Below are positions 3,297 through 60,800 of a stretch of 64,000 nucleotides of DNA, in pieces. Within the stretch, counting starts at the first letter, position 1; each line of letters starts with the position of its first letter. The stretch spans positions 4,030,001-4,094,000 of the forward strand of contig JAWMAR010000103.1 of assembly GCA_036785375.1 (NCBI GenBank), given 5' to 3'. The notes under the pieces were generated by a model that was not told the origin of the DNA, made no database searches, and saw only the letters and a list, made by a program, of their open reading frames with translations. This DNA comes from Leucoraja ocellata (taxonomy: Eukaryota). The position numbers and the translations under genes were made by a program.

Positions 3297-5619
3297 TAGC
3301 CCAAGTAATGGCTGTTGTTTTGAGCTTGACAATTTCAGGCCCCACATCACAGGCATTTATCTACAGTGAATTAAACCAGCAAAGGAGTTGGTTTCTATCA
3401 GGGAAACTTTCTGCTTTTACACAGAAGCAGATTTATGATTTTATAGCAACAGTTCCCCTCTTCTCTCACCTCATCTACAAAGACAGATGTAGGAATGTAT
3501 TTCAATACTGTTCCAAAACCCTTTTTACAAAGACTACATTGTTCACTACAGCTCATCGACTCTCAATATCATCTGCAGGAATATCAGTCCACCGGATGCA
3601 GGAAGAGCACTTATTTACACAAGAAATGACATCTATTCATGGACCATAAGATGGATTTCAGGCTGAATTTTATGGACTGAAGACAAGGTAATCAGTCTAA
3701 TTAACAATAGCATAATTGATTATTAATGTCAAACTGTTACTGTATATACAGTATTTTTTGAAGGTGAAATGAAAAACATAAAATGCTGGAAAAAGATAAA
3801 TATCTGACTGTGAGCTTTCCAACTTTTTATACTTTTATTTCACATTTCTACCATTTGCTGTTTGTTTAATTTTCACATTTGAAAGTGATTTAGGATTCTA
3901 AAACGGCATTTCTAGTGAATCAAAATGACTTAATTCTGATTTTCCCAAAGGTTTTTCATGGATTAAAAAAAATTCTTCTTGTTTTAAAACGTAAATTATT
4001 TTCTTTACTTGGCAAATTAAATGTAGCCACCCCACGCTCAACCAAACGTGTGATTGCTGTAACGCAAGAGATTTACAATTAATTATAATGAGCATTTTAA
4101 ACTCAAAAGAATGAAATACAGGTTTAAAATCATAAAATCAGGTTTAAAAGAACTGCCTTGAAAATTATATTATCTCGAGAAATATCCACTTAAACCATAA
4201 ATTAATTTGTGGTCAATTCAAAATAAATACGTTCACTGCTGATTCAGTGGAGAAATCCATGTTAAAACATCTTTTGTTGCTGAATACACTACTTATTTAA
4301 GGTCTTTGAGTGTTGGTTTGGAGTGTTGGAAATTATGGTTTGCTTAATGTGCATAAAGAGAAATCCTCCAATGTTGAAGATGTTCAACAAAATAGTTGCT
4401 GTTAAACTGTTTACTGACTACAGTGGGAAGTACAATGCCTGCGTGAGAAATGACTTAAGTTGCAGCATTAAAGCAGTGCAGGAAGCCATGAGGTTATTCA
4501 ATGGAGTTTCTTCATTCCTCAGTAAGTGAGAACTGGCAGTACTGTTGCTTTTGGATTCAGTGTAAAGAATGAATCTCTGTTCCTACTGCAGGAAATTTCA
4601 TTTTTTGAAAATTCCATGTCACTCTTAAAAATTGGATGGCCCAGCTTGTTTTGATTGACTAACTGTATTAATAATATCCATCCAGCTATTATATTACAGA
4701 ACCAATAAAAGAAAAAGTTTAACAGAAGTTGGTTTATATTAAATCACAAAGTAACCTTGTTGAACAGAACATACCGGGATCGCCAAAAACATTATCGCTG
4801 TATCTGAACTGTTTTACCATTATTAAACCCCATGGGAATAAATGAATAAAAATAGATTATGACTGAGCAGGTGAATGAGACAAGTAGAGAAAGAGTATCC
4901 ATTATTGCTATTATTTTAAGGTTTTTTTTTCCCCCAATGTGAATGTTAGGAATTTAATACAGAAAAGAACATTACTAGGCAGGAAATGTGCATAGATAGT
5001 TAAAGACCCTTTTTGGGGAACTAGTGAGATAAGCCTACAAAAACATGGGCCTGACCTCCCATTCAGAGTTAGAGGTTATTCATACAAAGGAAAGAGAATA
5101 CTTTAAAGTGCTGGCATTTGTTTGAACTTTGAATAAGGAGGTTTGGGCCAATATATCACTTAATTTGTTTTAACAAAGTGCAAACATATTAGCTATCATC
5201 GGAGTGGTCATTTTGAAATGATTGAACTCGATAAAATGATTCCCGCATGTAATTTACTCTCAGGCTTACAGAACAATTGCCTATCCATTAACAACATAGG
5301 ACCAACAGGCAGTAGTTCAATTTTCCATGTGAAAAAACTAGTGTGACCAGGTTTTGAAGAATAATTTTGAAAATAAAATATCCAAATTAATTGATTTTTG
5401 AATTTGCTCATTCATTGAAATATGGGCGTTTATTGGCCATACCAAATTGCCCCTGATCTGAATGATGAGGTGAGTTTCTTCAAGAATTTCCTATAGGTCT
5501 CTGTTACGTTTGGCACAGAATGTAGTTTTCCTTTCTTGAAGGAAATGAGTGATCGGGACAGATTGCACAAGTGAACATGCGATCACTAATACTGATTCTG
5601 TCTCTTCAGAGTTTTTTTA

Positions 5620-9184: not shown

Positions 9185-10067
9185 TCAGAGTTTTGTCCGA
9201 GCCAGGTTTATTAGCCTGATGGCTGTGGGGAAGTAGCTATTCCTGAACTTGGTTGTTGCAGTCTTCAGGCTCCTGTACCTTCTACCTGAAGGTAGCAGGG
9301 AGATGAGTGTGTGGCCAGGATGGTGTGGGTCTTTGATGATACTGCCAGCCTTTTTGAAGCAGTGACTGCGATAAATCCCATCGATGGAAGGAAGGTCAGA
9401 GCCAATGATGGACTGGGCTGTGTTTACTACTTTTTGTAGTCTTTTCCTCTCCAGGGCGCTCAAATTGCTGAACCAAGCCATGATGCAACCGGTCAGCATG
9501 CTTTCAACCGTGCACCTGTAGAAGTTAGAGAGAGTCTTCCTTGACAAACCGACTCTCCGTAATCTTCTCAAGAAGTAGAGGCGCTGATGAGCTTTCTTGA
9601 TAATTGCATTAGTGTTCTCGGACCAGGAAAGATCTTCAGAGATGTGCACGCCCAGGAATTTGAAGCTCTTGACCCTTTCAACCATCGACCCATTTATATA
9701 AATGTGGCTGTGGGTCCCCCTCCTACTCCTTCCAAAGTCCACAATCAGTTCCTTGGTTTTGCTGATGTTGAGGGCCAGGTTATTGCACTGGCACCATATG
9801 GACAATTGCTCGATCTCTCTTATATACTCTGACTCATCCCCATCAGTGATACGCCCCACAACAGTGGTGTCGTCAGCGAACTTGATGATGGAGTTTGCAC
9901 TGTGACTGGCTACGCAGTCATGAGTATATAGTGAGTACAGCAGGGGGCTGAGCACACAGCCTTGAGGTGCTCCCATGCTGATTGTTATTGAGGCTGACAC
10001 ATTTCCACCAATACGAACAGACTGTGGTCTGTGAATGAGGAAGTCGAGGATCCAATTGCAGAGGGAT
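9185..10067 (-). CDS. Rex1/Babar reverse transcriptase, C-terminal part (open but 5'-interrupted)
   Basis: 271-aa ORF with RT domains 4-7 and a DUF1891-like '[13 protein letters not shown]' region. Confidence 0.85.
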
Positions 10068-10627
10068 AATAATAATAATAATAATAATAAATTTTATTTA
10101 TGGGCGCCTTTCAAGAGTCTCAAGGACACCTTACAAAAATTTAGCAAGTAGAGGAAAAACATGTAAGCGGAATGAAATAAATAGTAGAGACATGACTAGT
10201 ACACAAATTAAAGACAGAATTCAATTCAAAACACAATATGAGGCAATTCAAGCAAAGATGAAAAGGGAGGGGGACGTGGGGCTAAGGATAGGCAGAGGTG
10301 AAGAGATGGGTCTTGAGGCGGGACTGGAAGATGGTGAGGGACACGGAATTGCGGATCAGTTGGGGGAGGGAGTTCCAGAGCCTGGGAGCTGCCCTGGAGA
10401 AGGCTCTGTCCCCAAAACTGCGGAGGTTGGATTTGTGGATGGAGAGGAGACCGGCTGATGTGGACCTGAGGGACCGTGAGGGTTGGTAGGGGGAGAGGAG
10501 GTCAGTGAGATATGGGGGGGCAAGATGGTGGAGGGCTTTGTAGGTGAGGACCAGGATTTTGTAGGTGATCCGGTGGGAGATGGGAAGCCAGTGAAGTTGT
10601 TTGAGGACTGGAGTGATGTGATGGCAG
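10068..10627 (-). mobile_element. L2-clade LINE 3' fragment with (ATT)n tail inserted in Rex1
   Basis: Minus strand encodes [14 protein letters not shown]…[14 protein letters not shown]…[17 protein letters not shown], a typical L2 C-terminus. TAA repeat at 10068-10088. Confidence 0.85.
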
Positions 10628-11415: not shown

Positions 11416-12696
11416 AATTAATTATTTTTGCTGTACAAGAATTTTGGCCATTTGCATGTGGATAATAATTTAACAAGTTGTTATTATTACTACAATATGA
11501 GGGAACAATAACTACAAGAACACTACATTCTCTCATATGGGGATAGTTCAGAACTGTTCATGTACACTGCAGTCAATAAAAGTTCACAAGAACAAGTATG
11601 GTTAGAGGAAAGGACACACAAGTTGCATGTGTATATGTGGTGTTGCCAAAAAAACAAGATTACACGTGTATATAAGATAAATGGCTTTCAAAGTCACTGA
11701 TCCTCTTTTGGCAGAGAAAGGAAATCTACAACGTCAGCAGCAATCAAGAGGTCAGAGAAAAGAGGAATGATTCAGCAAAAGAAACAAAATATAAGTGAAA
11801 AATCCTAAAGTGAATGATGATCCAAGAGGTGGGTGGTAACAAGTGTTACTTTACATTGACAACAACCAGTGGCAAGAGAAATTCAATTATTAAAGCTATC
11901 TCATTTTCCACTGTTTAATAAGGGCAGAGGCACAGAGCTTGACTGCTGTGTCTTTGGTCCTGCTTTCTATTGCCTGATAAGTAAAAATGATTGCTGCAAC
12001 CAAGCTTTTAGCATGACTTCTGGCAATAATAAACCAGAGTTTCTGGACAGATTATTTTTATGTTCCTTTCCTCAGTTATCCAAGAATGCAAATTTATAGG
12101 AAGTCTGATTAACCCGTTATATGCAACTTATGTTGAAGATTCCCATAAAAAAGTGATTAGAGTGTTTGTTGCTTTGGCATCATAGGTTGACAAAATAACA
12201 CACCTGACCTTCCATGTTGTTGGCCTTCTGAGTTCAGCTTAGTTTAACTTAGAGATACAGCATAGAAACTGGCCCTTCAGCCCATCGAGACCAGGCCCAC
12301 AATCGATCACCTGTACACAAGTTCTATGTTATCCCAATTTTGCATCCCACACACGTGTGGCAATTTACAGAAGCCAATTAAAGATTACCTTATTGGTAAT
12401 GATGTTGGTATAGGTTTCTTAGTGTCACATTTAGTGAGATGCATTCTGTTTTGCATCTAGACATGTAACATATATGTAGAAAGGGTTTCTACCCTAAATG
12501 TCACCTATCCATGTTCTACAGGGATGCTACCCAACCTACAGAGTTATTCCAGCACTTTGTGTCCTTTTGGGAACAAATATATGGATGCCTTCATTTACAG
12601 TAGTATGAGAAGGGCAACCAGGAATGTGTACTTATTATAGTGGTTATATGTGATGATGTGATGATGTGATTTGATTGTTGCCAAGATGCATCGCAC

Positions 12697-12758
12697 AGAA
12701 GAGAAACAAACAGCGAACAAAGATAGGATGGGATGATGGAGAGGTATTGACTGAGAAA
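12697..12758 (+). repeat. 62-bp target-site duplication, left copy (right copy 15656-15717)
   Basis: AGAAGAGAAACAAACAGCGAACAAAGATAGGATGGGATGATGGAGAGGTATTGACTGAGAAA is present identically at both L1 ends. Confidence 0.95.
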
Positions 12759-15347
12759 TTACTAATATTACCTAAAGATATTAATAATAGATTTGCCCAA
12801 TTTTACCAAAACTTATATACATCTAAAATTAAAATAGAAGATAGCAAAATAAAAACATTTCTAGATAATTGTAATCTTCCAATACTGGACCCTTTGGAAC
12901 AAGAGGAACTAGGAGCTCAAATTACAATCAAAGAAATAAGTGAAACAATAAAATCGTTGAAAAATGGTAAGACACCGGGACCAGATGGTTTTAATAATGA
13001 ATTTTATAAAAAATTTCAGGAGATAACGGCCCCTTATTTATTTAATTTATACTCCCATGCTTTTAAAGAAAACAAACTACCTGAAACACTAACAGAATCA
13101 ACTATTACGCTTATTCCAAAAAAAGATAAAGATTTAGAAGACCCGGGCTCGTACAGAGCTATATCACTTTTAAATACAGATCAGAAAATTTTAGCAAAGA
13201 TTTTAGCAAGTAGATTAAGCAAATATATTAGTAAACTGATAAACCCTGATCAAACGGGGTTTATACCTAAAAGATACTCATTTAATAATCTGAGACGCCT
13301 GTTTAATATAATGTACTCGCATAAAGTAGAGGAAGAAGATATATCAATTATTTCTTTGGATGCAGAGAAAGCATTTGATCAGGTAGAGTGGCAATACTTA
13401 TATAAAGTACTACAAAAATTTAACATGGGAGAGAATTTTATAACATGGGTAAAATTATTATATGATAAACCGATGGCAAGAATTTTAACTAATAACATGT
13501 TATCTCAAAAATTTCAACTATCAAGGGGTAATAGGCAGGGATGTGCACTATCACCCCTGCTATTTGCCCTTATGATAGAACCCCTGGCTGAAAGTATAAG
13601 AATTCATCCGAATATTCAGGGCTATAATACCAGGGACTCAAAGAATAAAATCTCATTATATGCAGACGATATACTTTTATATATTACAAAGTCACAAACG
13701 AGCATACCAAATTTATTAAACTTAATAGAGGAATTTGGGTCTTTTTCTGGATATAGAATAAACTGGAACAAAAGCGAAATCATGACATTAAAACCTCAAG
13801 AACCTACACACTTACTGAAGTTCCCCTTTAAAATCGCAACAGAAAAATTTAAATATTTGGGTATTCAGATTACTAGAAAATATAAAGCATTATTCAATGC
13901 TAATTTCATACCTTTATTAAATAAACTTAATACACAGATTAAATTTTGGAAAACACTTCCCTTATCATTATTAGGTAGAATAAATGCAATAAAAATGATC
14001 TTCTTACCACAATTACTATACCTATTTCAGTCTATACCGGTATATATACCAAAATATTTTTTTAAAAAATTAGACTCTAACATTACAAATTATATTTGGG
14101 ACTATAAATCACATAGAATCACAAAAAAACACTTATGTAAACCAAAAGAGGTCGGGGGACTTTCACTTCCGAATTTTATGTATTATTACTGGGCAGTGCA
14201 TATTAAGAATATGATTTATTGGTTGGATAGTTCTACACAACAGACAGAATGGATAAAAATGGAGAAGGAGGATTGTCATCCTTGTAATATAGGAACGATC
14301 CTCTTTTCCCCCAAAAAACTGAATAACACAATATATAAGAAGAACCCAATTATATATGGTACAATAAGAATTTGGAAACAAATAAAATTATCTTTAAAAT
14401 TAAGAAATCTATCACTGTTAATGCCAATTGCGAATAACCCTTTATTTAAACCATCTCTTATTGATAAGACATATAACCAATGGGAAAGTCTCGGAATTAG
14501 AAGGATCAGGGATATGTACGAAACAGGAAACCTACTATCATTCCAACAACTACAATTAAAATTTAAATTGAAAAACAACCAATATTTTAAATATCTTCAG
14601 ATTTGCGACTTTGTGAAAAAATATATACAAGGATATCAAAAAGTAACTCCTGACTTATTGGAAGAAGCAATGAATATTGAAGCTGACTCACAAAAATTAA
14701 TATCCTATTTATATAATAGTATTCTAAATATAGACCTACCATCGACAGAGGTACTTAGAGAAGAGTGGGAACGGGAATTAATGATAAAAATTACGAAGGT
14801 TAAATGGGAAAAATACCTGATATATATTCACAAATGTTCAATTAATGTAAGACATAATCTAATACAATTTAAAATTGTACATAGATTATATTATTCAAAA
14901 ACAAGATTGAACAAATTTTATCCAAATATATCCGCCACTTGTGATAAATGTCTAGCCCAAAAGGCAACTATAACACACTCCTTAGTTTCCTGCATAAAAC
15001 TTTATAGATTTTGGAATGATATTTTTGAAATACTTACAAAATTATTCAAGACAAGAATGGAACCTAATACTGAAATGATTATATTTGGTGTAATGGAAGA
15101 TGGGAATAAATTGAACACATCTCAAAATCTATTCCTTAATTATGGTTTAATAATAGCAAAAAAATTAATACTTAAATTTTGGAAGGGTACATCAATACCA
15201 ACACTTAAAATGTGGATTGCAAGTATGTTGGACACCGCTCATCTTGAGGAAATGCGATTCCTCCTAATGGATAAATCAGACCAATTCATAACGAGTTGGT
15301 CTCCATTCGTCGTTTTTTTGGAATCATATGGTGCAACACAATTGTAA
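12759..15347 (+). CDS. L1 ORF2 fragment (RT plus C-terminal CCHC, endonuclease missing)
   Basis: Motifs GKTPGPDGF, YRAISLLNTDQKI, SLDAEKAFD, RGNRQGCALSPLLF, LYADD, FKYLGI and C-terminal CDKC…H…SC. Confidence 0.93.
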   Translation, partial: LLILPKDINNRFAQFYQNLYTSKIKIEDSKIKTFLDNCNLPILDPLEQEELGAQITIKEISETIKSLKNGKTPGPDGFNNEFYKKFQEITAPYLFNLYSHAFKENKLPETLTESTITLIPKKDKDLEDPGSYRAISLLNTDQKILAKILASRLSKYISKLINPDQTGFIPKRYSFNNLRRLFNIMYSHKVEEEDISIISLDAEKAFDQVEWQYLYKVLQKFNMGENFITWVKLLYDKPMARILTNNMLSQKFQLSRGNRQGCALSPLLFALMIEPLAESIRIHPNIQGYNTRDSKNKISLYADDILLYITKSQTSIPNLLNLIEEFGSFSGYRINWNKSEIMTLKPQEPTHLLKFPFKIATEKFKYLGIQITRKYKALFNANFIPLLNKLNTQIKFWKTLPLSLLGRINAIKMIFLPQLLYLFQSIPVYIPKYFFKKLDSNITNYIWDYKSHRITKKHLCKPKEVGGLSLPNFMYYYWAVHIKNMIYWLDSSTQQTEWIKMEKEDCHPCNIGTILFSPKKLNNTIYKKNPIIYGTIRIWKQIKLSLKLRNLSLLMPIANNPLFKPSLIDKTYNQWESLGIRRIRDMYETGNLLSFQQLQLKFKLKNNQYFKYLQICDFVKKYIQGYQKVTPDLLEEAMNIEADSQKLISYLYNSILNIDLPSTEVLREEWERELMIKITKVKWEKYLIYIHKCSINVRHNLIQFKIVHRLYYSKTRLNKFYPNISATCDKCLAQKATITHSLVSCIKLYRFWNDIFEILTKLFKTRMEPNTEMIIFGVMEDGNKLNTSQNLFLNYGLIIAKKLILKFWKGTSIPTLKMWIASMLDTAHLEEMRFLLMDKSDQFITSWSPFVVFLESYGATQL

Positions 15348-29104: not shown

Positions 29105-32000
29105 ATAAGGGATAAGAGTGTTGTAAAAACAAGCCTGAAGGCTTTATGTCTCAATGCAAGGAGCATTCATAATAAGGTGGATGAGTTGAATGTGCAGATA
29201 GCTATTAATGACTATGATATAGTTGGGATCACGGAGACATGGCTCCAGGGTGACCAAGGCTGGGAGCTGAACATCCAGGGATATTCAATATTCAGGAGGG
29301 ATAGACAGAAAGGAAAAGGAGGTGGGGTAGCGTTGCTGGTTAGAGAGGAGATTAACGCAATAGAAAGGAAGGACATTAGCTAGGAGGATGTGGAATCGAT
29401 ATGGGTAGAACTGCGTAACACTAAGGGGCAGAAAACGCTAGTGGGAGTTGTGTACAGGCCACCTAACAGTAGTAGTGGAGTTGGGGATGGCATCAAACAG
29501 GAAATTAGAAATGCGTGCAACAAAGATAAAACAGTTATAATGGGTGACTCCAATCTACATATAGATTGGGTGAATCAAATTGGCAAGGGTGCTGAGGAAG
29601 AGGATTTCTTGGAATGTATGCGGGATAGTTTTCTAAACCAACATGCAGAGGAACCAACGAGAGAGCAGGTTATTCTAGACTGGGTATTGAGTAATGAGGA
29701 AAGGTTCGTTAGCAGTCTTGTTGTGCGTGGCCCCTTGGGCAATAGTGACCGAAATATTGTTGAGTTCTTCATTAGGATGGAGAGTGACATTGCTAATTCA
29801 GAAACAAGGGTCCTGAACTTAAAGAAAGGTAACTTTGAGGGTATGAGATGTGAATTGGCCAAGATAGACTGGCAATTGATTCTTAAAGGGTTGACGGTGG
29901 ATATGCAATGGAAGGCATTTAAAGACTGCATGGATGAGCTACAACAATTGTTCATCCCAGTTTGGCAAAATAATAAATCAGGGAAGGTAGTGCATCCGTG
30001 GATAACAAGGGAAATCAGGGATAGTATCAAAACAAAAGATGAAGCATACAAATTAGCCAGAAAAAGCAGTCTACCAGAGGACTGGGAAAAATTCAGAGTC
30101 CAACAGAGGAGGACAAAGGGCTTAATTAGGAAAGGGAAAATAGATTATGAAAGAAAACTGGAAGGGAACATAAAAACTGACTGCAAAAGTTTTTATAGAT
30201 ATGTGAAGAGAAAAAGATTAGTTAAAACAAATGTAGGTCCCTTGCAGTCAGAAACAGGTGAATTGATCATGGGGAACAAGGACATGGCAGACCAATTGAA
30301 TAATTACTTTGGTTCTGTCTTCACCAAGGAAGACATAAATAATCTGCTGGAAATAGCAGGGGACCGGGGGTCAAATGAGATGGAGGAACTGAGTGAAATC
30401 CAGGTTAGCCGGGAAGTGGTGTTAGGTAAATTGAATGGATTAAAGGCCGATAAATCCCCAGGGCCAGATAGGCTGCATCCCAGAGTACTTAAGGAAGTAG
30501 CCCCAGAAATGGTGGATGCATTAGTGATAATTTTTCAAAACTCTTTAGATTCTGGAGTAGTTCCTGAGGATTGGAGGGTAGCTAATGTAACCCCACTTTT
30601 TAAGAAGGGAGGGAGAGAGAAAACGGGGAATTACAGACCAGTTAGTCTAACATCGGTGGTGGGGAAACTGCTAGAATCAGTTATTAAAGATGGGATAGCA
30701 GCACATTTGGAAAGTGGTGAAATCATTGGACAAAGTCAGCATAGATTTATGAAAGGTATAGAATTTTTCGAGGATGTAACTAGTAGAGTGGATAAGGGAG
30801 AACCAGTGGATGTGTTATATCTGGACTTTCAGAAGGCTTTTGACAAGGTCCCACATAAGAGATTAGTATACAAACGTAAAACACACGGTATTGGGGGTTC
30901 AGTATTGATGTGGATAGAGAACTGGCTGGCAGACAGGAAGCAAAGAGTAGGAGTAAACGGGTCCTTTTCACAATGGCAGGCAGTGACTAGTGGGGTACCG
31001 CAAGGCTCAGTGCTGGGACCCCAGCTATTTACAATATATATTAATAATTTGGACGAGGGAATTGAATGCAACATCTCCAAGTTTGTGGATGACACGAAGC
31101 TGGGGGGCAGTGTTAGCTGTGAGGAGGATGCTACGAGGCTGCAAGGTGACTTGGATAGGCTGGGTGAGTGGGAAAATGCATGGCAGATGCAGTATAATGT
31201 GGATAAATGTGAGGTTATTCACTTCGGTGGCAAAAACAAGAAAGTAGACTATTATCTGAATGGTGGCCGATTAGGAAAGGGGGAGATGCAATGAGACCTG
31301 GTGTCATGGTACACCAGTTATTGAAAGTAGGCATGCAGATGCAGCAGGCAGTGAAGAAAGCAAATGGTATGTTAGCATTCATAGCAAAAGGTTTTGAGTA
31401 TAGGAGCAGGGAGGTTCTACTGCAGTCGTACAGGGTCTTGGTGAGACCACACCTGGAGTATTGCGTACAGTTTTAGTCTCCTAATCTGAGGAAAGACATT
31501 CTTGCCATAGAGGGAGAATAGAGAAGGTTCACCAGACTGATTCCTGGGATGTCAGGACTTTCATATGAAGAAAGACTGGATAGACTCGGCTTGTACTCGC
31601 TAGAATTTAGATGATTGAGGGGGGATCTTATAGAAACTTTCAGAATTCTTAAGGGTTTGGACAGGCTAGATGCGGGTAGATTGTTCCCGATGTTGGGGAA
31701 GTCCAGAACAAGGGGTCACAGTTTAAGGATAAGGGGGAAATCTTTTAGGACCGAGATGAGGAAAACTTTTTTCACACAGAGAGTGGTGAATCTCTGGAAT
31801 TCTCTGCCACAGAAGGTAGTTGAGGCCAGTTCATTAGCTATATTTAAGAGGGAGTTAGATGTGGCCCATGTGGCTATGGGGTATGGGGAGAAGGCATCAC
31901 GGGGTATGGAGAGAAGGCAGGTATAGGATACTGAGTTGGATGATCAGCCATGATCATATTAAATGGCCTACTCCTGCACCTATTTTCTATGTTTCTATGT
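29105..32000 (+). mobile_element. CR1-clade LINE: almost complete ORF2 (APE endonuclease and RT) and 3' tail
   Basis: LNARSI…GITETWL…GGGVAL, YRPP, KSPGPD, NYRPVSLTS, YLDFQKAFDKV, GVPQGSVLGP and FVDD motifs; (TTTCTATG)n tail; possible TSD CATTGT at 29099 and 32002. Confidence 0.95.
29135..31900 (+). pseudogene. CR1 ORF2 pseudogene
   Basis: Stop at 29381, an in-frame deletion after QHRFMKG, a frameshift near 31293 and further stops. Confidence 0.9.
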
Positions 32001-36324: not shown

Positions 36325-36580
36325 TTAAGTTTAGTTTAGAGACATCTAGCGCAGAAACAGGCCCTTCTTCCGACCAAGTCTGTGTAGACCTGTTATCCCC
36401 ATACACTTGCACTATCCTGCACACTAAGGACAAATTACAATTTTACAAAAAACCTGCAAACCTGTACGTCTCTGGAATGTGGGAGGAAACCGGAGCATCT
36501 GGAGAAAACCCATGCGGTCACAGGGAGAACGTACAACAGCACTTGTAGTCAGAATCGAAGTTGGGTTTCTGGAAGTGGAA
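36325..36580 (-). mobile_element. V-SINE copy
   Basis: Shared SINE body and tail. Confidence 0.75.
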
Positions 36581-37789
36581 GGCATTATATATGTAAGATA
36601 TTCTAAACAGCGATTTTTACCCTTCCTTCAAACTCATTTGTTGCAAATATTAATTTAGTTTCAGTCTGCTACAGTACAGACTTCATTATATCAATACTTA
36701 TTATATTGCCCATATTATTCCAAATTAGAACAATTTATGTTGTGGATTCATTGCTGCTGGAATCATGGATTAATAGAATTCTTTACGCATAGTGAGAGAC
36801 CAGTGAACCCATCAAGTCTGATGCTTTTTGTGTAAATAGTTCCGTTTGTCTCATTCCCTGCCTCTTTGTTTGTCTCCCTATAAATTTGTTTCCTTGACTG
36901 TGGTTTCTGAATTACATATTAAAAGCCATGTTTTAATCTTCTTCCAGAGACTGCGAATGTTCAGCACATGCAAAATAAAAACTGCACTGGATGTGTCCAA
37001 ACCCAATGGGATCCAGGAGCAGTGATAAACCCCCCATAAGTTCCGGGCATTGTTTGCCACTGGGCTACTCAGCCCATTAAACTTGTTATACTTTATCAAT
37101 TATTAACCTTAATGCCAAACTATCCAGTTACCGCGTCAATGTGATAAGCTTGTGACTCGTCTTGTTAATGATAATTTTGCATCCTACAAAGACATGAAAA
37201 ACATGGACATTTGCTCTGCTCATTTTGATATAATGGATTGCAAATGAACAACATATAAACACCATAGCTTTGAAGTGAAATCGTATGTATCTACAAATGC
37301 AACCGTCCTACTTATGCCATTGCACTCAATATATATTGAAAGAAAAATAAACAGAAACTAATTCGTATTTGGGGATGTGATGTTGAAAAGCTGCAATAAA
37401 TCCAACTAGACAAATGTTAGTAAATGTTCCCACTGATTAATGTAAGTTGGGACGTGGGACCTCACAGTCAGTTTTATGATAAAACGTTGGTTTACTGCGG
37501 AGAAGTTAATTCATGAATGATTTTCTTTTCCATTTTTATATAGTTTCCTTAAGTAACATTACCTTGTTAAAGCCATTAACCCAAAATATGATTTTCTTAA
37601 AAAAATACTTTTATTGTTTTAATTGAGAGAACTAACTATGAGAGAAAAAAATACAGGAAAGAGGGGTGAAAGATCAAGCAAGCATTAACTTTAAAGATGG
37701 GTGAACTTTCTGTGGATTCTGTTACTGTTGTAAAAGCTTGACATGTTACATTCAACTGATTTAATAGTACATGGTTGCTTATTAAGGCT

Positions 37790-37953
37790 TCTTCTTCTTA
37801 TCGAGTCCACACAATCAGATTAGAAGTTGTTCAGCCAGAACTGAGCACACTTCTCGGCATCTGCACAATGGTGTCTGTCTTGTGCTTCTTGTGCGTGGTG
37901 GTGGAAAGATTGGTGGAACAGGTCCGCGACGTGAACGTTCTTTCCTTGACCCC
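37790..37953 (-). mobile_element. 164-bp non-autonomous Vingi/Ingi-like retroposon
   Basis: 9-bp TSD ATTAAGGCT (37781-37789 and 37954-37962); minus-strand 3' end GGACTCGATAAGAAGAAG; 5' end is an HDV-like fold. Confidence 0.8.
37903..37953 (-). ncRNA. Minimal CPEB3-like HDV-type ribozyme motif (P4 essentially absent; degenerate P1 and P3)
   Basis: GGGGUCA-A-GGAAAGA-ACG-UUCACGU-CGC-GGACCU-GU-UCCA-CCAA-UCUUUCC: perfect 7-bp P2, L3 UUCACGU and GU at P1.1. Confidence 0.72.
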
Positions 37954-38484
37954 ATTAAGGCTCAATAATATAAATTAATCATGGCATCCGCATGGCCTAA
38001 TTCTTGCAGTAACATCAATACCAACAGTTTACTTCTGACTTTTTTAGAATTTGATTCACTTTGGTTTACTAATTTTTCCCTAATGTGTTATATTTTGATT
38101 TTAATTTGATTAATTTAGAGAGGAATCTGGTTATTGCTCAAAATGGAGCCCTTCTTTGAAATAAATTTGATGAATATGGGTATGGCATTAATCCTGTAAA
38201 TTAGAGGTGTAACCTAATCACTCAGCATTTTAGGATCTAATCAGGGGCGAGAGGAATTCACAGAGGTGAATTCACCAAACATTAAAGGCTAAAACTAAAT
38301 TTCACTCACAATATTTAAAATAATCAATCAATACTCCCCATCACAATTCAACAAAAAAGGTTTCAATAGAGAAACCCTATTTGTAACTATGTGATCTATG
38401 GGGCCATATGTTGCATTAAACTGTTAAGAGATTTTTTCATTATTATTCTTTAGAAGCCCTGTAACCCACCTCAATTTTTACTTA

Positions 38485-38665
38485 GAACACAAAATGCTGG
38501 AGTAACTCAGCGGGTCACGCAGCATTTCTGGAGGACATAGATAGGCAGCATTTCAGGAGCCTTCTTCAGACTCCATGTTTTCCAGAAATGCTTCCCGATC
38601 CGCTGAATTACTCCAGCACATTGTGTTCTACGCAAGGTTCCAGCATCTGCAGTTCCTTGTGTCTC
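38485..38665. mobile_element. Palindromic Penelope-pLTR-derived mini-element
   Basis: TGCTGGAGTAACTCAGCGGGTC…GATCCGCTGAATTACTCCAGCA inverted arms. Confidence 0.7.
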
Positions 38666-38859
38666 AATTGTTACTGCTTGTCTCAAGATATAAGTTCTAA
38701 ATGTCATGCACGACATCAGCAGTTGACGTTTCAGAAGTGTCCAAAAACAGTAAAGTCCTGGAATCTGAGCTAAAAAACTTGGAATTAGTATCAGAAAGTA
38801 AAGACGGAGAAATGTTGCTAGGTTTTTTTTTAATGAGGGTTCTATCTTTTATGCAACAC

Positions 38860-39400
38860 AATGTAGACATATGGATAGGTGAAGTTTCATGTTGGGACCT
38901 TTCCTCAGACTGGTTGTGCTGGGGGGGGGGGGGGGGGGGGGGGGGGGGGATAGAAAGCTTGAAGAGAGGGGAAAGTGGGACAAAGCCTGATAAGTGATAA
39001 AATGTAGTTGAAGAAAGTTTTGGATTGACAGATGATTGGACAGAGGCCAGATATGAAAAGACAAAAGGTGTGAGTTTAGGCATTTACGGATAGAAGAGGC
39101 ATGAAATGTGAAGCCAGAGGAAGGAATATAGGTGGAAGGGGATAGGAAATATATAAATAAAAGCACTTCTAGGTGAGGCACACGGAAGAGAGGGGGGAGA
39201 AATGGAGGGGTGGGATTGTTTTTGTAGGTCTGTTATCTGAAATTGGATAATTTAATGTTCATACCATTGGATTGTAGCTACCCAAGCGGAAAATGAGATG
39301 TTGTTCCTCCAGTTCACATGTGCCCTCACTCTGGCAATGGAGGAGGCCCAGAACAATAATGAGAATGGGAAGGGGAGTTAAAATGGACAACAAGACTTCA
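38860..39400 (-). mobile_element. Penelope 3' fragment with poly-G tract
   Basis: Minus strand encodes …EEQHLIFRLGSYNPMV followed by UTR and a degenerate hammerhead. Confidence 0.75.
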
Positions 39401-39785: not shown

Positions 39786-39919
39786 CTAGAAATCCAGTTA
39801 TGTGTTTGTTTAAAATAATGAGTTGGTTGGTCTTGGTTAAAGTAGAAGAGTGTGGGAGATGTCAATAGTAAAGCGACAAATAGTAACGCGCCAAGTGAAA
39901 AATCTACACTTGTTGCTTT

Positions 39920-40467
39920 ACCCTCCCCCCTTGACTCCACTCAAGGACACAAGCAGTCTGTCCAGGTGCGGCAGAGGTTCACCTGCACCTCCTCCAACCT
40001 CATCTATTGCATCTGCTGCTCTAGGTGTCAGCTGCTCTACATCGGTGAGACCAAGCGTAGGCTTGGCGATCGCTTCGCCCAACACCTCCGCTCGGTTCAG
40101 AATAACCAACCTGATCTCTCGGTGGCTCAGCACTTCAACTCCCCCTCCCATTCTGAATCTGACCTTTCTGTCCTGGGCCTCCTCCATGGCCAGAGTGAGG
40201 CCCACCGTAAATTGGAGGAGCAGCACCTCATATTTCGCTTGGGCAGTTTACACCCCAGCGGTATGAACATTGACTTATCTAATTTCAGATAGTTCTGGCT
40301 TTCTCCCCCTTCCCAGCTCTCCCTCAGCCCACTGTCTCCCGCCTCTTCCTTTCTTCTTCCCGCCCCCCACCCTCACATCAGTCTGAAGAAGGGTCTCAAC
40401 CCGAAACGTTGCTTCGCTCCATAGATTCTGCCTCACCCGCAGAGTTTCTCCAGCAATTTTGTCTACC
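39920..40467 (+). mobile_element. Penelope-like element 3' part: GIY-YIG endonuclease, UTR and hammerhead-bearing pLTR
   Basis: ORF to 40292: NLIYCICCSRCQLLYIGETKRRLGDRFAQHL…VAQHF…RKLEEQHLI…GMN. Confidence 0.92.
40380..40415 (+). ncRNA. Minimal hammerhead ribozyme motif in the Penelope pLTR
   Basis: CUGAAGA-A-GGGU-cuca-ACCC-GAAA-CGUU: hammerhead core boxes, 4-bp stem II and palindromic ACGU stem III. Confidence 0.7.
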
Positions 40468-58984: not shown

Positions 58985-60800
58985 AATAGTAAGATTAAAC
59001 GAGAATTTACCAGTTTGAAGTTTGATTGTCATTTTATGAGGAGTAACGTTGAGGGATTACGTGAAGAACCCGCCAGGACGCATGCGTGTCATTCTTCAAA
59101 GCAATGGTGTGAAATCACAGATAACAGTAATGACTGAACATAGTAAGATTAGAGAAGAGGATACCAGTTGAACTTTATGATCAAGGGTGGTAGCGGAGGG
59201 CATGTAATCCCTCAAAGTTACTCCTCATAAAATGACGATCAAACTTCGAACTGGTAAGTTCTCGTTTAATCTTACTATTTTACTTCGGAGTCACGTGAGT
59301 GACTACGTGAAGATTTCAAAGCTCTGCGATTTCATGCCGTGGAAACGAGTCCATGCATCACATCTGCCTTAATTGACTAAGGGAGGAATTGTGTTAACAT
59401 ATTTAAACATGAATCTGACATTGAAAACCCATGATAAATTTATTAACAACAAATTATAGCCCCTATTTCATGGGGTGAAATCATAATACAGAACTTAAAA
59501 TTGTTTCTGCAAAAGTTCCAGGTTTAACCACTGGTTTACAGTAGAATTGTTGGAACGTTTTTTCCCTAGATCATCCTGCTGTCTCCAGGATTTGGTCCAT
59601 CGGTACGTCCAATTCCATAGCTGCCGATGTAGCTGCAGCCCTGGTGGAATGATATTTGAATATGTTAGTATCCACCCCAGCTGTTGTTAAAACCTGTTTC
59701 AGCCATCTGGAAATAGTTTGAACCGACACCTTTTTGTGGGGTTGTTTATGGCTGATTAGTAGTGCCATCTCATTGCCTCTGATATTTTTGGTGTTCTCAA
59801 TGTATAATAATAAATGTCTTATTATACAGAGACGATCATCCATAGGGTAAGCCCTAAATTCTATTTTGAGGCCTGATGATCCCGGTCTGTTCTGTTTGAC
59901 TAATTCGTGAATATGAAACATTATATTTCTTGTTGAAGAAATCATATCGTCCAGCCTTAACTTATGTAAAGACTGTACCCTTTGTGCTGAGACCAAAGCC
60001 ATCAGCATTACTGTTTTATGCATCAGTTTTTGCAGGGACAGAGCTGTTGCTGGAGACCAGTTCCTTAGTAACGTTAGGACAATACTCACATCCCATATAT
60101 TAGAGTACCTGGTTCTTGGGGGATTGGATTAAAAATTCCCCTCATAAGTTTGGTTACCAGGGGGTGAGTCCCAACAGAATGACGCTCTGATCCTCGCCAC
60201 AGATATGCTGAAAGGGCACTTCTGGCGCAGTTAATGGCACTATAACTGAGCCCCTCATCATAATGGAGGCCTGCCAGGAATTCCAGGACAGACGTTATGT
60301 TCATCGTGCTGTAAGTGATGTTGTTTTTAAAACAATATATCTCTAATTTCCTGATGTATACCAGATATTGGTTTTTGGTAGACTGCCTGTGGGCCGCTGA
60401 CATAATGTTCAATGTTCGGTCCGTCAGTCCCAGTTCCAGTAGAGGTTTCTTTAGACTCTACAAATTAATAAGTTTGTCGTATTATGACATGGATGGCTAT
60501 CCCCCGTTACGTGATGAACCAACAAATCTGGTTGTTTCAGAACGGTGATACATGGTTCTAAGACCATGTCGAGAATCACAGGGAACCATGGTTGAGTAGG
60601 CCAATCGGGCACTACCAAAATACCAGACTTGTTGTATTTTGTGTAATACCTGACTGATGAGGCAGAAAGGAGGGAATGCATAGAAAAACAATTTTCCCCA
60701 ATGCAGCGAAAAGGGATCTATCGCTGATGCCCCAGGGTCTGGTTCCCAAGAAACATAGTTTGGTAACTGGTGATTGAGTCTAGATGCAAATATATCATGT
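58985..60800 (-). mobile_element. 5'-truncated DIRS1-like tyrosine-recombinase retrotransposon
   Basis: Minus strand: (D)IFASRLNHQLPNYVSWEPDPGA…YAFPPF…LVVPDWPTQPWFP, then a YR domain; terminal ~79-bp inverted repeat 58985-59063 / 59201-59279. Confidence 0.9.
59500..60412 (-). pseudogene. DIRS tyrosine recombinase (frameshift near 60089, W-to-stop at 59571)
   Basis: SYSAINCARSALS; ALVSAQRVQSL (catalytic R); HSTR; AG*SREKTFQQFY (catalytic Y). Confidence 0.88.

Follow-up and report, generated by a model that had tools for sequence, protein, structure and literature searches.

A short retroposon of Leucoraja ocellata with a predicted HDV-type ribozyme head, its probable derivation from Vingi-type LINEs, and the CPEB3-like heads predicted on autonomous relatives

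Results and Discussion

A mobile element of 164 bp, located on the minus strand of a 64,000-nucleotide stretch of Leucoraja ocellata DNA (hereafter the window; contig JAWMAR010000103.1, positions 4,030,001 to 4,094,000, of assembly GCA_036785375.1), belongs to a dispersed, multi-copy family whose members begin with a sequence of HDV-type ribozyme fold. It is very probably an internally deleted, non-autonomous Vingi-type LINE, because its last 73 nt match the ORF end of a Vingi-type family of the same genome, designated family S. Sequence comparison furthermore indicates that autonomous Vingi-type LINEs outside mammals carry predicted ribozyme heads of the CPEB3 family, the short element representing a reduced offshoot. 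The mammalian CPEB3 ribozyme, which has been linked to memory, probably descends from such a Vingi-type head.

The window copy

The element runs from G1 at position 37953 to its last base at 37790, and its parts are listed in Table 1. A first-pass annotation of the window had quoted the letters of the head, a target-site duplication, a GAA tail and a length of 164 bp, all of which were verified in the sequence. The 51-nt HDV order with almost no P4 that it had described was likewise confirmed, the helices following one another as P1-P2-P3-L3-P3'-P1'-GU-loop-CCAA-P2', with a P1 of 6 bp and a 4-nt loop in the place of P4. The mismatches that it had reported in P1 and P3 are also present, as C31A and G16A relative to the consensus; together with a 1-nt loop deletion they constitute the damage of this copy, which is probably inactive since single changes in the 3-bp P3 of the CPEB3 ribozyme are strongly deleterious (PMC9901934). 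By analogy with C57 of the CPEB3 ribozyme, C37913 in J4/2 is the predicted catalytic C (PMC9901934). The linker that separates head and tail probably originates from the 5' UTR of the parent LINE; an ACCACC run like that of the linker is also found 3' of the head in the autonomous family I and in the translation of protein P0014.

The window locus (L001) is duplicated as L002, 332 kb apart on the contig, with 97.5% identity over at least 3.2 kb, and the duplicate has G at position 16, i.e., it does not contain G16A. Many other loci also occur in near-identical pairs, which represent segmental duplications or uncollapsed haplotypes. ORF remnants at 12675-15347, 29384-31294, 9185-10093, 39846-40292 and 59571-60457 of the window are presumably L1/Tx1-like, CR1-like, Rex1-like, Penelope-like and DIRS-like, respectively.

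Table 1. Parts of the window copy (window coordinates) and CPEB3-type heads at other loci
Feature	Position	Strand	Description
Target-site duplication, 5' side of element	37954..37962	.	9 bp, same letters as 37781-37789
Target-site duplication, 3' side of element	37781..37789	.	9 bp
HDV-type ribozyme head (predicted)	37903..37953	-	51 nt in window copy, 52 in consensus; predicted cleavage 5' of G37953
P1, 5' strand	37948..37953	-	6 nt, partner 37920-37925; G1-U wobble; C31A mismatch at 37923
P2, 5' strand	37939..37945	-	7 Watson-Crick pairs with 37903-37909; compensated relative to families C and I
P3-L3-P3'	37926..37938	-	3 bp and 7-nt loop UUCACGU; G16A at 37938, one pair lost
GU, 4-nt loop instead of P4, J4/2 CCAA	37910..37919	-	G37919 pairs with L3 C as P1.1
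Linker	37863..37902	-	CAC/CAAGAAG repeat-rich; length varies among subfamilies
Vingi-type LINE 3' end	37790..37862	-	last codons (DAEKCAQFWLNNF), short 3' UTR, GAA tail
Stop codon of LINE-derived tail	37820-37822	-	within 37790..37862
GAA tail	37790-37800	-	end of short element
Family C head	L241:4044-4117, also L240, L239, L287	-	~3.1-kb autonomous Vingi-type family
Family I head	L329:162-239, also L325, L326, L330, L331		second full-length family, CPEB3-type
L191/L194 head	4001-4079		metagenome locus, near-perfect CPEB3-type ribozyme, 66.5 bits on RF00622

Copies and insertion

A similarity search of the 3.44-Gb genome returned 2,633 candidates, 40 of which were scored, while the exact 36-nt consensus head was found to occur 456 times (0 for the reversed control) and a looser head pattern 987 times, overlaps included. 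The mean divergence of the copies is 5%, and with so many exact heads the family probably numbers about 3,000 copies at least; contig depths in sequencing runs were left out of this estimate. Removal of partial and duplicated copies from 129 loci yielded 91 distinct full-length copies. Duplications of at least 7 nt, mostly 11-13 bp long, flank 72 of these, compared with 2 of 91 when flanks were mismatched as a control, and the boundary lies at G1 or one base inside in 56 of the 72. In runs X1 and X3, contigs likewise end within one base of G1, and run X3 also includes the L103 locus as an empty site, at which the duplication is present once. The exact heads and the duplications bear out the mobile multi-copy family that had been proposed from the single copy. 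In addition, the short element has a simple-repeat tail and no long ORF, which, together with the duplications, are features of bipartite LINEs.

Fold of the head

The 52-nt consensus head parses as an HDV-type double pseudoknot in which P1 has 6 bp and a 5-nt loop takes the place of P4, and the pairing of both P1 and P3 is restored in it. Position 31 is C in 88 of the 91 copies and position 16 is G in 82, while C42 is found in 83, G1 in 84 and U34 in 90 (the sample being partly chosen for an intact head); the copies possess both the C of a C-N-A-A J4/2 junction, expected to be catalytic, and a purine G1 paired with U. A strict HDV descriptor (nested P1, P2, P3 and P1.1) is passed by a consensus-type copy, L091, and failed by the window copy. 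Of the 91 copies, in which intact heads are over-represented, 40 pass it, as do only 15 of 45 copies picked by similarity and 0 of 3,000 dinucleotide shuffles of a whole element. Non-pseudoknot folding of the window copy gave a z of 0.48, by a method that is blind to the pseudoknot fold.

The P1 helix is 6 bp long in the short element and in L185/L187, compared with the 7 bp that define HDV-like ribozymes and that are present in the CPEB3 model and in autonomous relatives (7 bp in family C, L191 and L196). A 6-bp P1 beside the cleavage site may make for a slow or dead ribozyme, and P1 of the CPEB3 ribozyme is described as mutation-sensitive (PMC9901934). When scored on the Rfam CPEB3 model (RF00622), the window copy alone reaches 19.4 bits (E 0.076) and copies L091 and L004 reach 29.8 and 26.9 bits, so that the short element, at 19-30 bits, remains below the cut-off of 35. 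We consider it probable that the source copies of the element cleave.

Tail donor and class of the element

The tail of a consensus-type copy is 84-92% identical to family S over 65-74 nt at all eight fetched loci, and a 3' end taken over from a co-resident autonomous LINE is a hallmark of bipartite LINEs. Family S was found via the C-terminus of a public relative of family C, such proteins ending in CVQLWLNHI. Viewed over its last ~150 codons, the ORF ends in AEKCVQLWLNNI-like codons at each of the eight loci, which were taken from the best matches, and it encodes a zinc-knuckle-like C-terminus with the final residues CVQLWLNNI. Family S loci diverge from their majority by 3.5-7.4%, comparable to the 5% of the short element. 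A tRNA-type or Pol III SINE was ruled out, no match to tRNA, 7SL or 5S being returned by Rfam at E values up to 10 over 36500-39200. The earlier description of a ribozyme-headed, SINE-like family is thus upheld as regards the ribozyme-headed family, while 'SINE-like' is replaced by an internally deleted, non-autonomous Vingi-type LINE.

A search of the genome with the RT of locus L189 gave 122 matches, 90 of which were fetched and represent eight families. The tail of the element is absent from all eight families among these 90 of 122 matches, and its nucleotide alignments with families A-H and L189 are weak, 9-187 of 500 shuffles scoring as high. All 20 loci recovered with a start-codon pattern were copies of the short element, a 3'-anchor pattern revealed no recurring LINE sequence among the first 100 of 290 matches, and the four matches of a DL-codon pattern were all short-element-like; the latter two patterns failed because family S differs inside both anchors. 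Matches to Pfam PF14529 were rejected as parent, representing a two-ORF family that has no link to the short element. Loci L141-L170 constitute a young LINE family with two ORFs, whose 1,268-aa frames are intact and of RNase-H-type length and which probably belongs to the Nimb or I clade.

An autonomous partner sharing both ends of the element, for which the first-pass annotation had suggested looking, was found for the 3' end (family S, eight of eight loci) and not for the 5' end, as an N-terminal search did not find that of family S and its best matches belong to the other full-length family I. For this reason, the derivation of head and tail from one parent is something that we infer. In a quick tree, with an outgroup row that is 20% filled and with family S itself absent, protein P0014 is placed in a clade with the closest proteins of family S (support 98), and this clade is sister to that of family C (support 91). 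P0014 starts with a translated head that is compatible with 31 of 33 nt of the short-element head, and likewise with 31 of 33 nt of that of family C. Only about four codons separate P3' from the likely P2' in P0014, which suggests a short P4 in this clade.

Autonomous relatives and their heads

A metagenome scan with the core pattern returned 35 loci, six of which (four elements) exhibit an HDV-like fold, while none was recognized by eye in the other 29. In L189, the head immediately precedes an ORF of ~1,000 aa that encodes AP endonuclease and RT but lacks RNase H, and Pfam searches of L189, P0005, P0014 and P0046 returned endonuclease and RT families only. Family C measures 3.13-3.15 kb in five of six measured copies and is 54% identical to the Anolis protein P0046, presumably an Anolis Vingi element. 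The Vingi architecture is described as a single ORF with AP endonuclease and RT, without RNase H, in an element of ~3.1 kb (PMC13708176), and the Pfam results are those expected of this clade.

The same fold was parsed in families A, C and I and in L189, L185/L187, L196 and L191/L194, with mismatches in some decayed copies. Across seven autonomous or metagenomic heads, 94.4% of cells pair, and in 7 of 18 pairs both partners vary; covariation amounts to 0.458, compared with 0.153 in shuffled alignments (0 of 500 as high) and at most 0.135 in slid ones, a count that ignores relatedness. The proposed covariation test is in this sense positive for the heads of the relatives. Alignment A1, in which P4 is misplaced, was left out of the count.

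Family C heads comprise 74 nt, with a 7-bp P1, a full P4 and a CGAA junction, and the three that were given to RF00622 score 53.5-56.2 bits (E about 1e-12), above the cut-off. Family I, whose P1' is the same as that of the CPEB3 model, scores 45.6 bits in one of three copies, despite 5' loss, and 29.1 bits in two 5'-truncated copies. The highest-scoring head, L191, has a P4 region of 30 nt, LINE remnants around it and an upstream flank unlike that of the model, and because of these features its DNA does not look like a mammalian CPEB3 intron; no Vingi ORF was found behind it, and either a lone 5' fragment or a separate domestication may be represented here. Family A (24.7 bits, two of four matched), L189 (26.5), L196 (28.3) and L185 (23.9) remain under the cut-off, and families B and F returned no RF00622 match.

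Several further features of these elements were observed. L185/L187 is a short, bipartite, non-autonomous element consisting of an endonuclease start and an ORF end, with a 6-bp P1 and the same core, while L196 is a short non-autonomous element of ~100 nt with a CAA tail, a duplication and, again, the same core. Family B (L221, L223, L227, L289) carries a different HDV-like head, with a P1 of about 7 bp, a P2 of 9-10 bp, a C-rich L3 and no obvious catalytic C in most copies. In L189 (200-330) and in L207 of family A, the ribozyme lies within an open frame that is continuous with the ORF, its core reading RSRR, and this may have a bearing on the translation of uncapped RNA. The proteins nearest family S (clusters P0009, P0012, P0076 and P0082) cluster with icefish, eel cod and hagfish entries at a level of 90% identity, and for family B an eel protein proved nearly identical; P0012 relatives were not found in viral contigs. 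Sequence resemblance suggests that Vingi-type elements may have undergone horizontal transfer among marine animals.

RNA evidence

Sequencing runs were chosen with a query composed of 36 nt of head and 144 nt of flank, and run shares are a poor guide to spread. In the poly(A) run X23, 275 reads in both orientations fall on the short element; 90% of them continue into the flanks, and most of this RNA is therefore read-through. The single-cell run X24 (548 reads) contains 85 reads, to be counted as reads and not as molecules, with loose letters before G1 (median 31 nt), the consensus of which has an agreement of 0.51 and is joined to all four Gs of the short element. This consensus is presumably a template-switch oligo. 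The three Gs of the oligo before the four of the element are more readily reconciled with a genuine 5' end at G1 than with strand invasion, and the signal fits a (capped) transcription start at G1 equally well. The table of sites at which many molecules begin was empty for the runs examined.

Proposed mechanism

As a whole, the short element is likely to be explained as an internally deleted Vingi-type LINE that keeps its ribozyme head and last ~73 nt. Internal deletion of such a LINE would have left these two parts, the 3' end being retained as the portion that the LINE protein would recognize. The element would most likely ride on host transcripts by co-transcription, its HDV-type head would cut 5' of G1 and free an RNA with a defined 5' end, and a Vingi-type protein, most likely that of family S, would insert this RNA by target-primed reverse transcription, leaving duplications of 9-15 bp. 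The head would represent a reduced form, with a 6-bp P1 and no P4, of a ribozyme family borne by many Vingi-type elements. This scheme builds on the multi-copy insertion, boundaries, fold and 3' donor observed above, while cleavage, the host-transcription route and the mobilizing protein are modelled on what is described for L1Tc/NARTc and R2 (PMC4035085, PMC6765202, PMC8256844).

Two other readings of the short element have to be weighed. The head might be a non-cleaving relic, or mainly an internal promoter, with transcription start providing the defined 5' end; the 6-bp P1 and lost P4 are consistent with this, as is the template switching at G1 in X24, which fits a capped start, and the Pr77 head of L1Tc is described as promoter and ribozyme both (PMC3383444). 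However, the P2 of the short element is still fully paired although several of its pairs are not those of families C and I, P1.1, the G1-U wobble and the C-N-A-A junction are all retained, and natural minimal HDV-like ribozymes without P4 are described (PMC10879173, PMC6326823), so that we regard a relic or promoter as unlikely, if still a serious contender. Less probable again is a chimera, in which the head of one Vingi family was template-switched onto a family S tail. Tail exchange among short elements is described (PMC5786205), and the tail is 84-92% identical to family S while the head is clearly unlike every autonomous head found; on the other hand, the head and the short P3'-P2' spacing of P0014 place a compatible head with a suggested short P4 in the very clade of the closest proteins of family S. 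We favour the internally deleted LINE.

Origin of the CPEB3 ribozyme

The first-pass annotation had proposed that the CPEB3 ribozyme could descend from a Vingi-like retroposon on account of the core of the short element. The link is supported by families C and I and L191, which pass the Rfam cut-off, and not by the short element, which does not. In the printed alignments, 34 of the first 40 positions of the Rfam consensus are matched by L241 (family C), as are 11 of the last 13, and seven of its eight differences keep the pair; L191 matches 38 of the first 40 and 13 of the last 14. The differences from CPEB3 in the high-scoring heads are mostly compensatory. P2, J1/2, the P4 base and J4/2 were outside the search pattern. 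As RF00622 was the sole mammalian sequence compared, descent of the mammalian ribozyme is likewise a matter that we infer. We lean, if only slightly, towards the fullest version of this account, according to which the CPEB3 ribozyme would be a domesticated Vingi 5' end that inserted in intron 2 before the marsupial/placental split, its outgroup would be the Vingi-type elements that survive in a fish-like vertebrate and in further animals, and the short element would be a 52-nt form that is still active with 6 bp in P1 and without P4.

A separate origin of the mammalian ribozyme, with convergence imposed by the HDV fold, would be rather improbable. In its favour, the active site comprises or adjoins P3, L3 and the G-rich P1, this core was what the patterns used here looked for, the score of the short element is below the cut-off, and R2 and HDV are described as sharing 21 of 27 core positions (PMC8256844). 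Yet P2, J1/2, the P4 base and J4/2 agree as well, regions that lie outside the patterns and in which other pairs are described as tolerated (PMC9901934), HDV-like ribozymes have about six invariant nucleotides (PMC8256844), and the core pattern gave just one match in viral contigs and, in a stricter form, one in prokaryote genomes, both without the whole fold by eye. A P1/P3-like core at L316:1480-1580, on a Stenotrophomonas contig, is followed by a hairpin without a C-N-A-A junction and was set aside as probably due to chance. The reverse direction, i.e., capture of the ribozyme by Vingi elements from a host CPEB3 gene, would accommodate the near identity of the sequences and the apparent movement of Vingi-type elements between hosts, but heads of this kind are found on either side of the Vingi-type tree, with family A and L189 on one and families C and I on the other, as well as in non-mammalian DNA, and reports of the CPEB3 ribozyme are limited to mammals (PMC8233481); we hold it to be very improbable indeed. 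Descent from a Vingi-type head is the reading that we prefer.

A trace of Vingi in the human genome, X12_LINE, is described (PMC5753468; also PMC9004415), and structure-based searches are described as having found HDV-like ribozymes in sea urchin, lamprey and lancelet (PMC8256844), some of which may be Vingi heads. Ribozymes are listed for six LINE clades in the portion of PMC5786205 consulted, Vingi not being among them there. A survey of titles and abstract openings encountered no link between the CPEB3 ribozyme and Vingi, and an earlier remark is possible. Vingi-type heads over the Rfam cut-off would provide the CPEB3 ribozyme with an outgroup and a testable origin by retrotransposon domestication, and a Vingi origin would weaken the case for CPEB3 as a uniquely mammalian source of the HDV ribozyme (a proposal cited in 10.1101/2022.09.22.508989). 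If active, the short element would supply a single vertebrate genome with very small ribozymes by the thousand. Vingi elements are furthermore described as gene-insertion tools (PMC13708176), for which the design of templates would be affected by a 5' UTR ribozyme.

Comparison with known systems

By its tail, the short element belongs with the bipartite non-autonomous LINEs; by its score, it falls outside RF00622. NARTc, RIME and SIDER, of the trypanosomatid L1Tc/ingi clade, and the R2 SIDEs are described as short, internally deleted LINEs which likewise combine a 5' HDV-like ribozyme with the 3' end of the parent (PMC4035085). The short element differs from these in its vertebrate host, its Vingi-type parent and its 52-nt head with a 6-bp P1, no P4 and a CPEB3-type core. 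The non-autonomous derivatives of hedgehog Vingi-1_EE, also bipartite LINEs, are by description alike in arising through internal deletion of Vingi (PMC5786205). Minimal HDV-like ribozymes such as drz-Mtgn and the theta ribozymes resemble the short element, by description, in their lack of P4 (PMC10879173); these come from metagenomes and phages, theta beside tRNAs, whereas the ribozyme considered here heads an animal retroposon. With the CPEB3 ribozyme (RF00622), finally, the short element has in common an identical P3 and L3, the G1-U wobble, a single-pair P1.1 followed by U and a C-N-A-A junction, while it is distinguished by the absence of P4, a 6-bp P1, another P2 and a score below the cut-off, and by being mobile and present in many dispersed copies, each with its own duplication, where the CPEB3 ribozyme is single-copy and resides in intron 2 of its gene.
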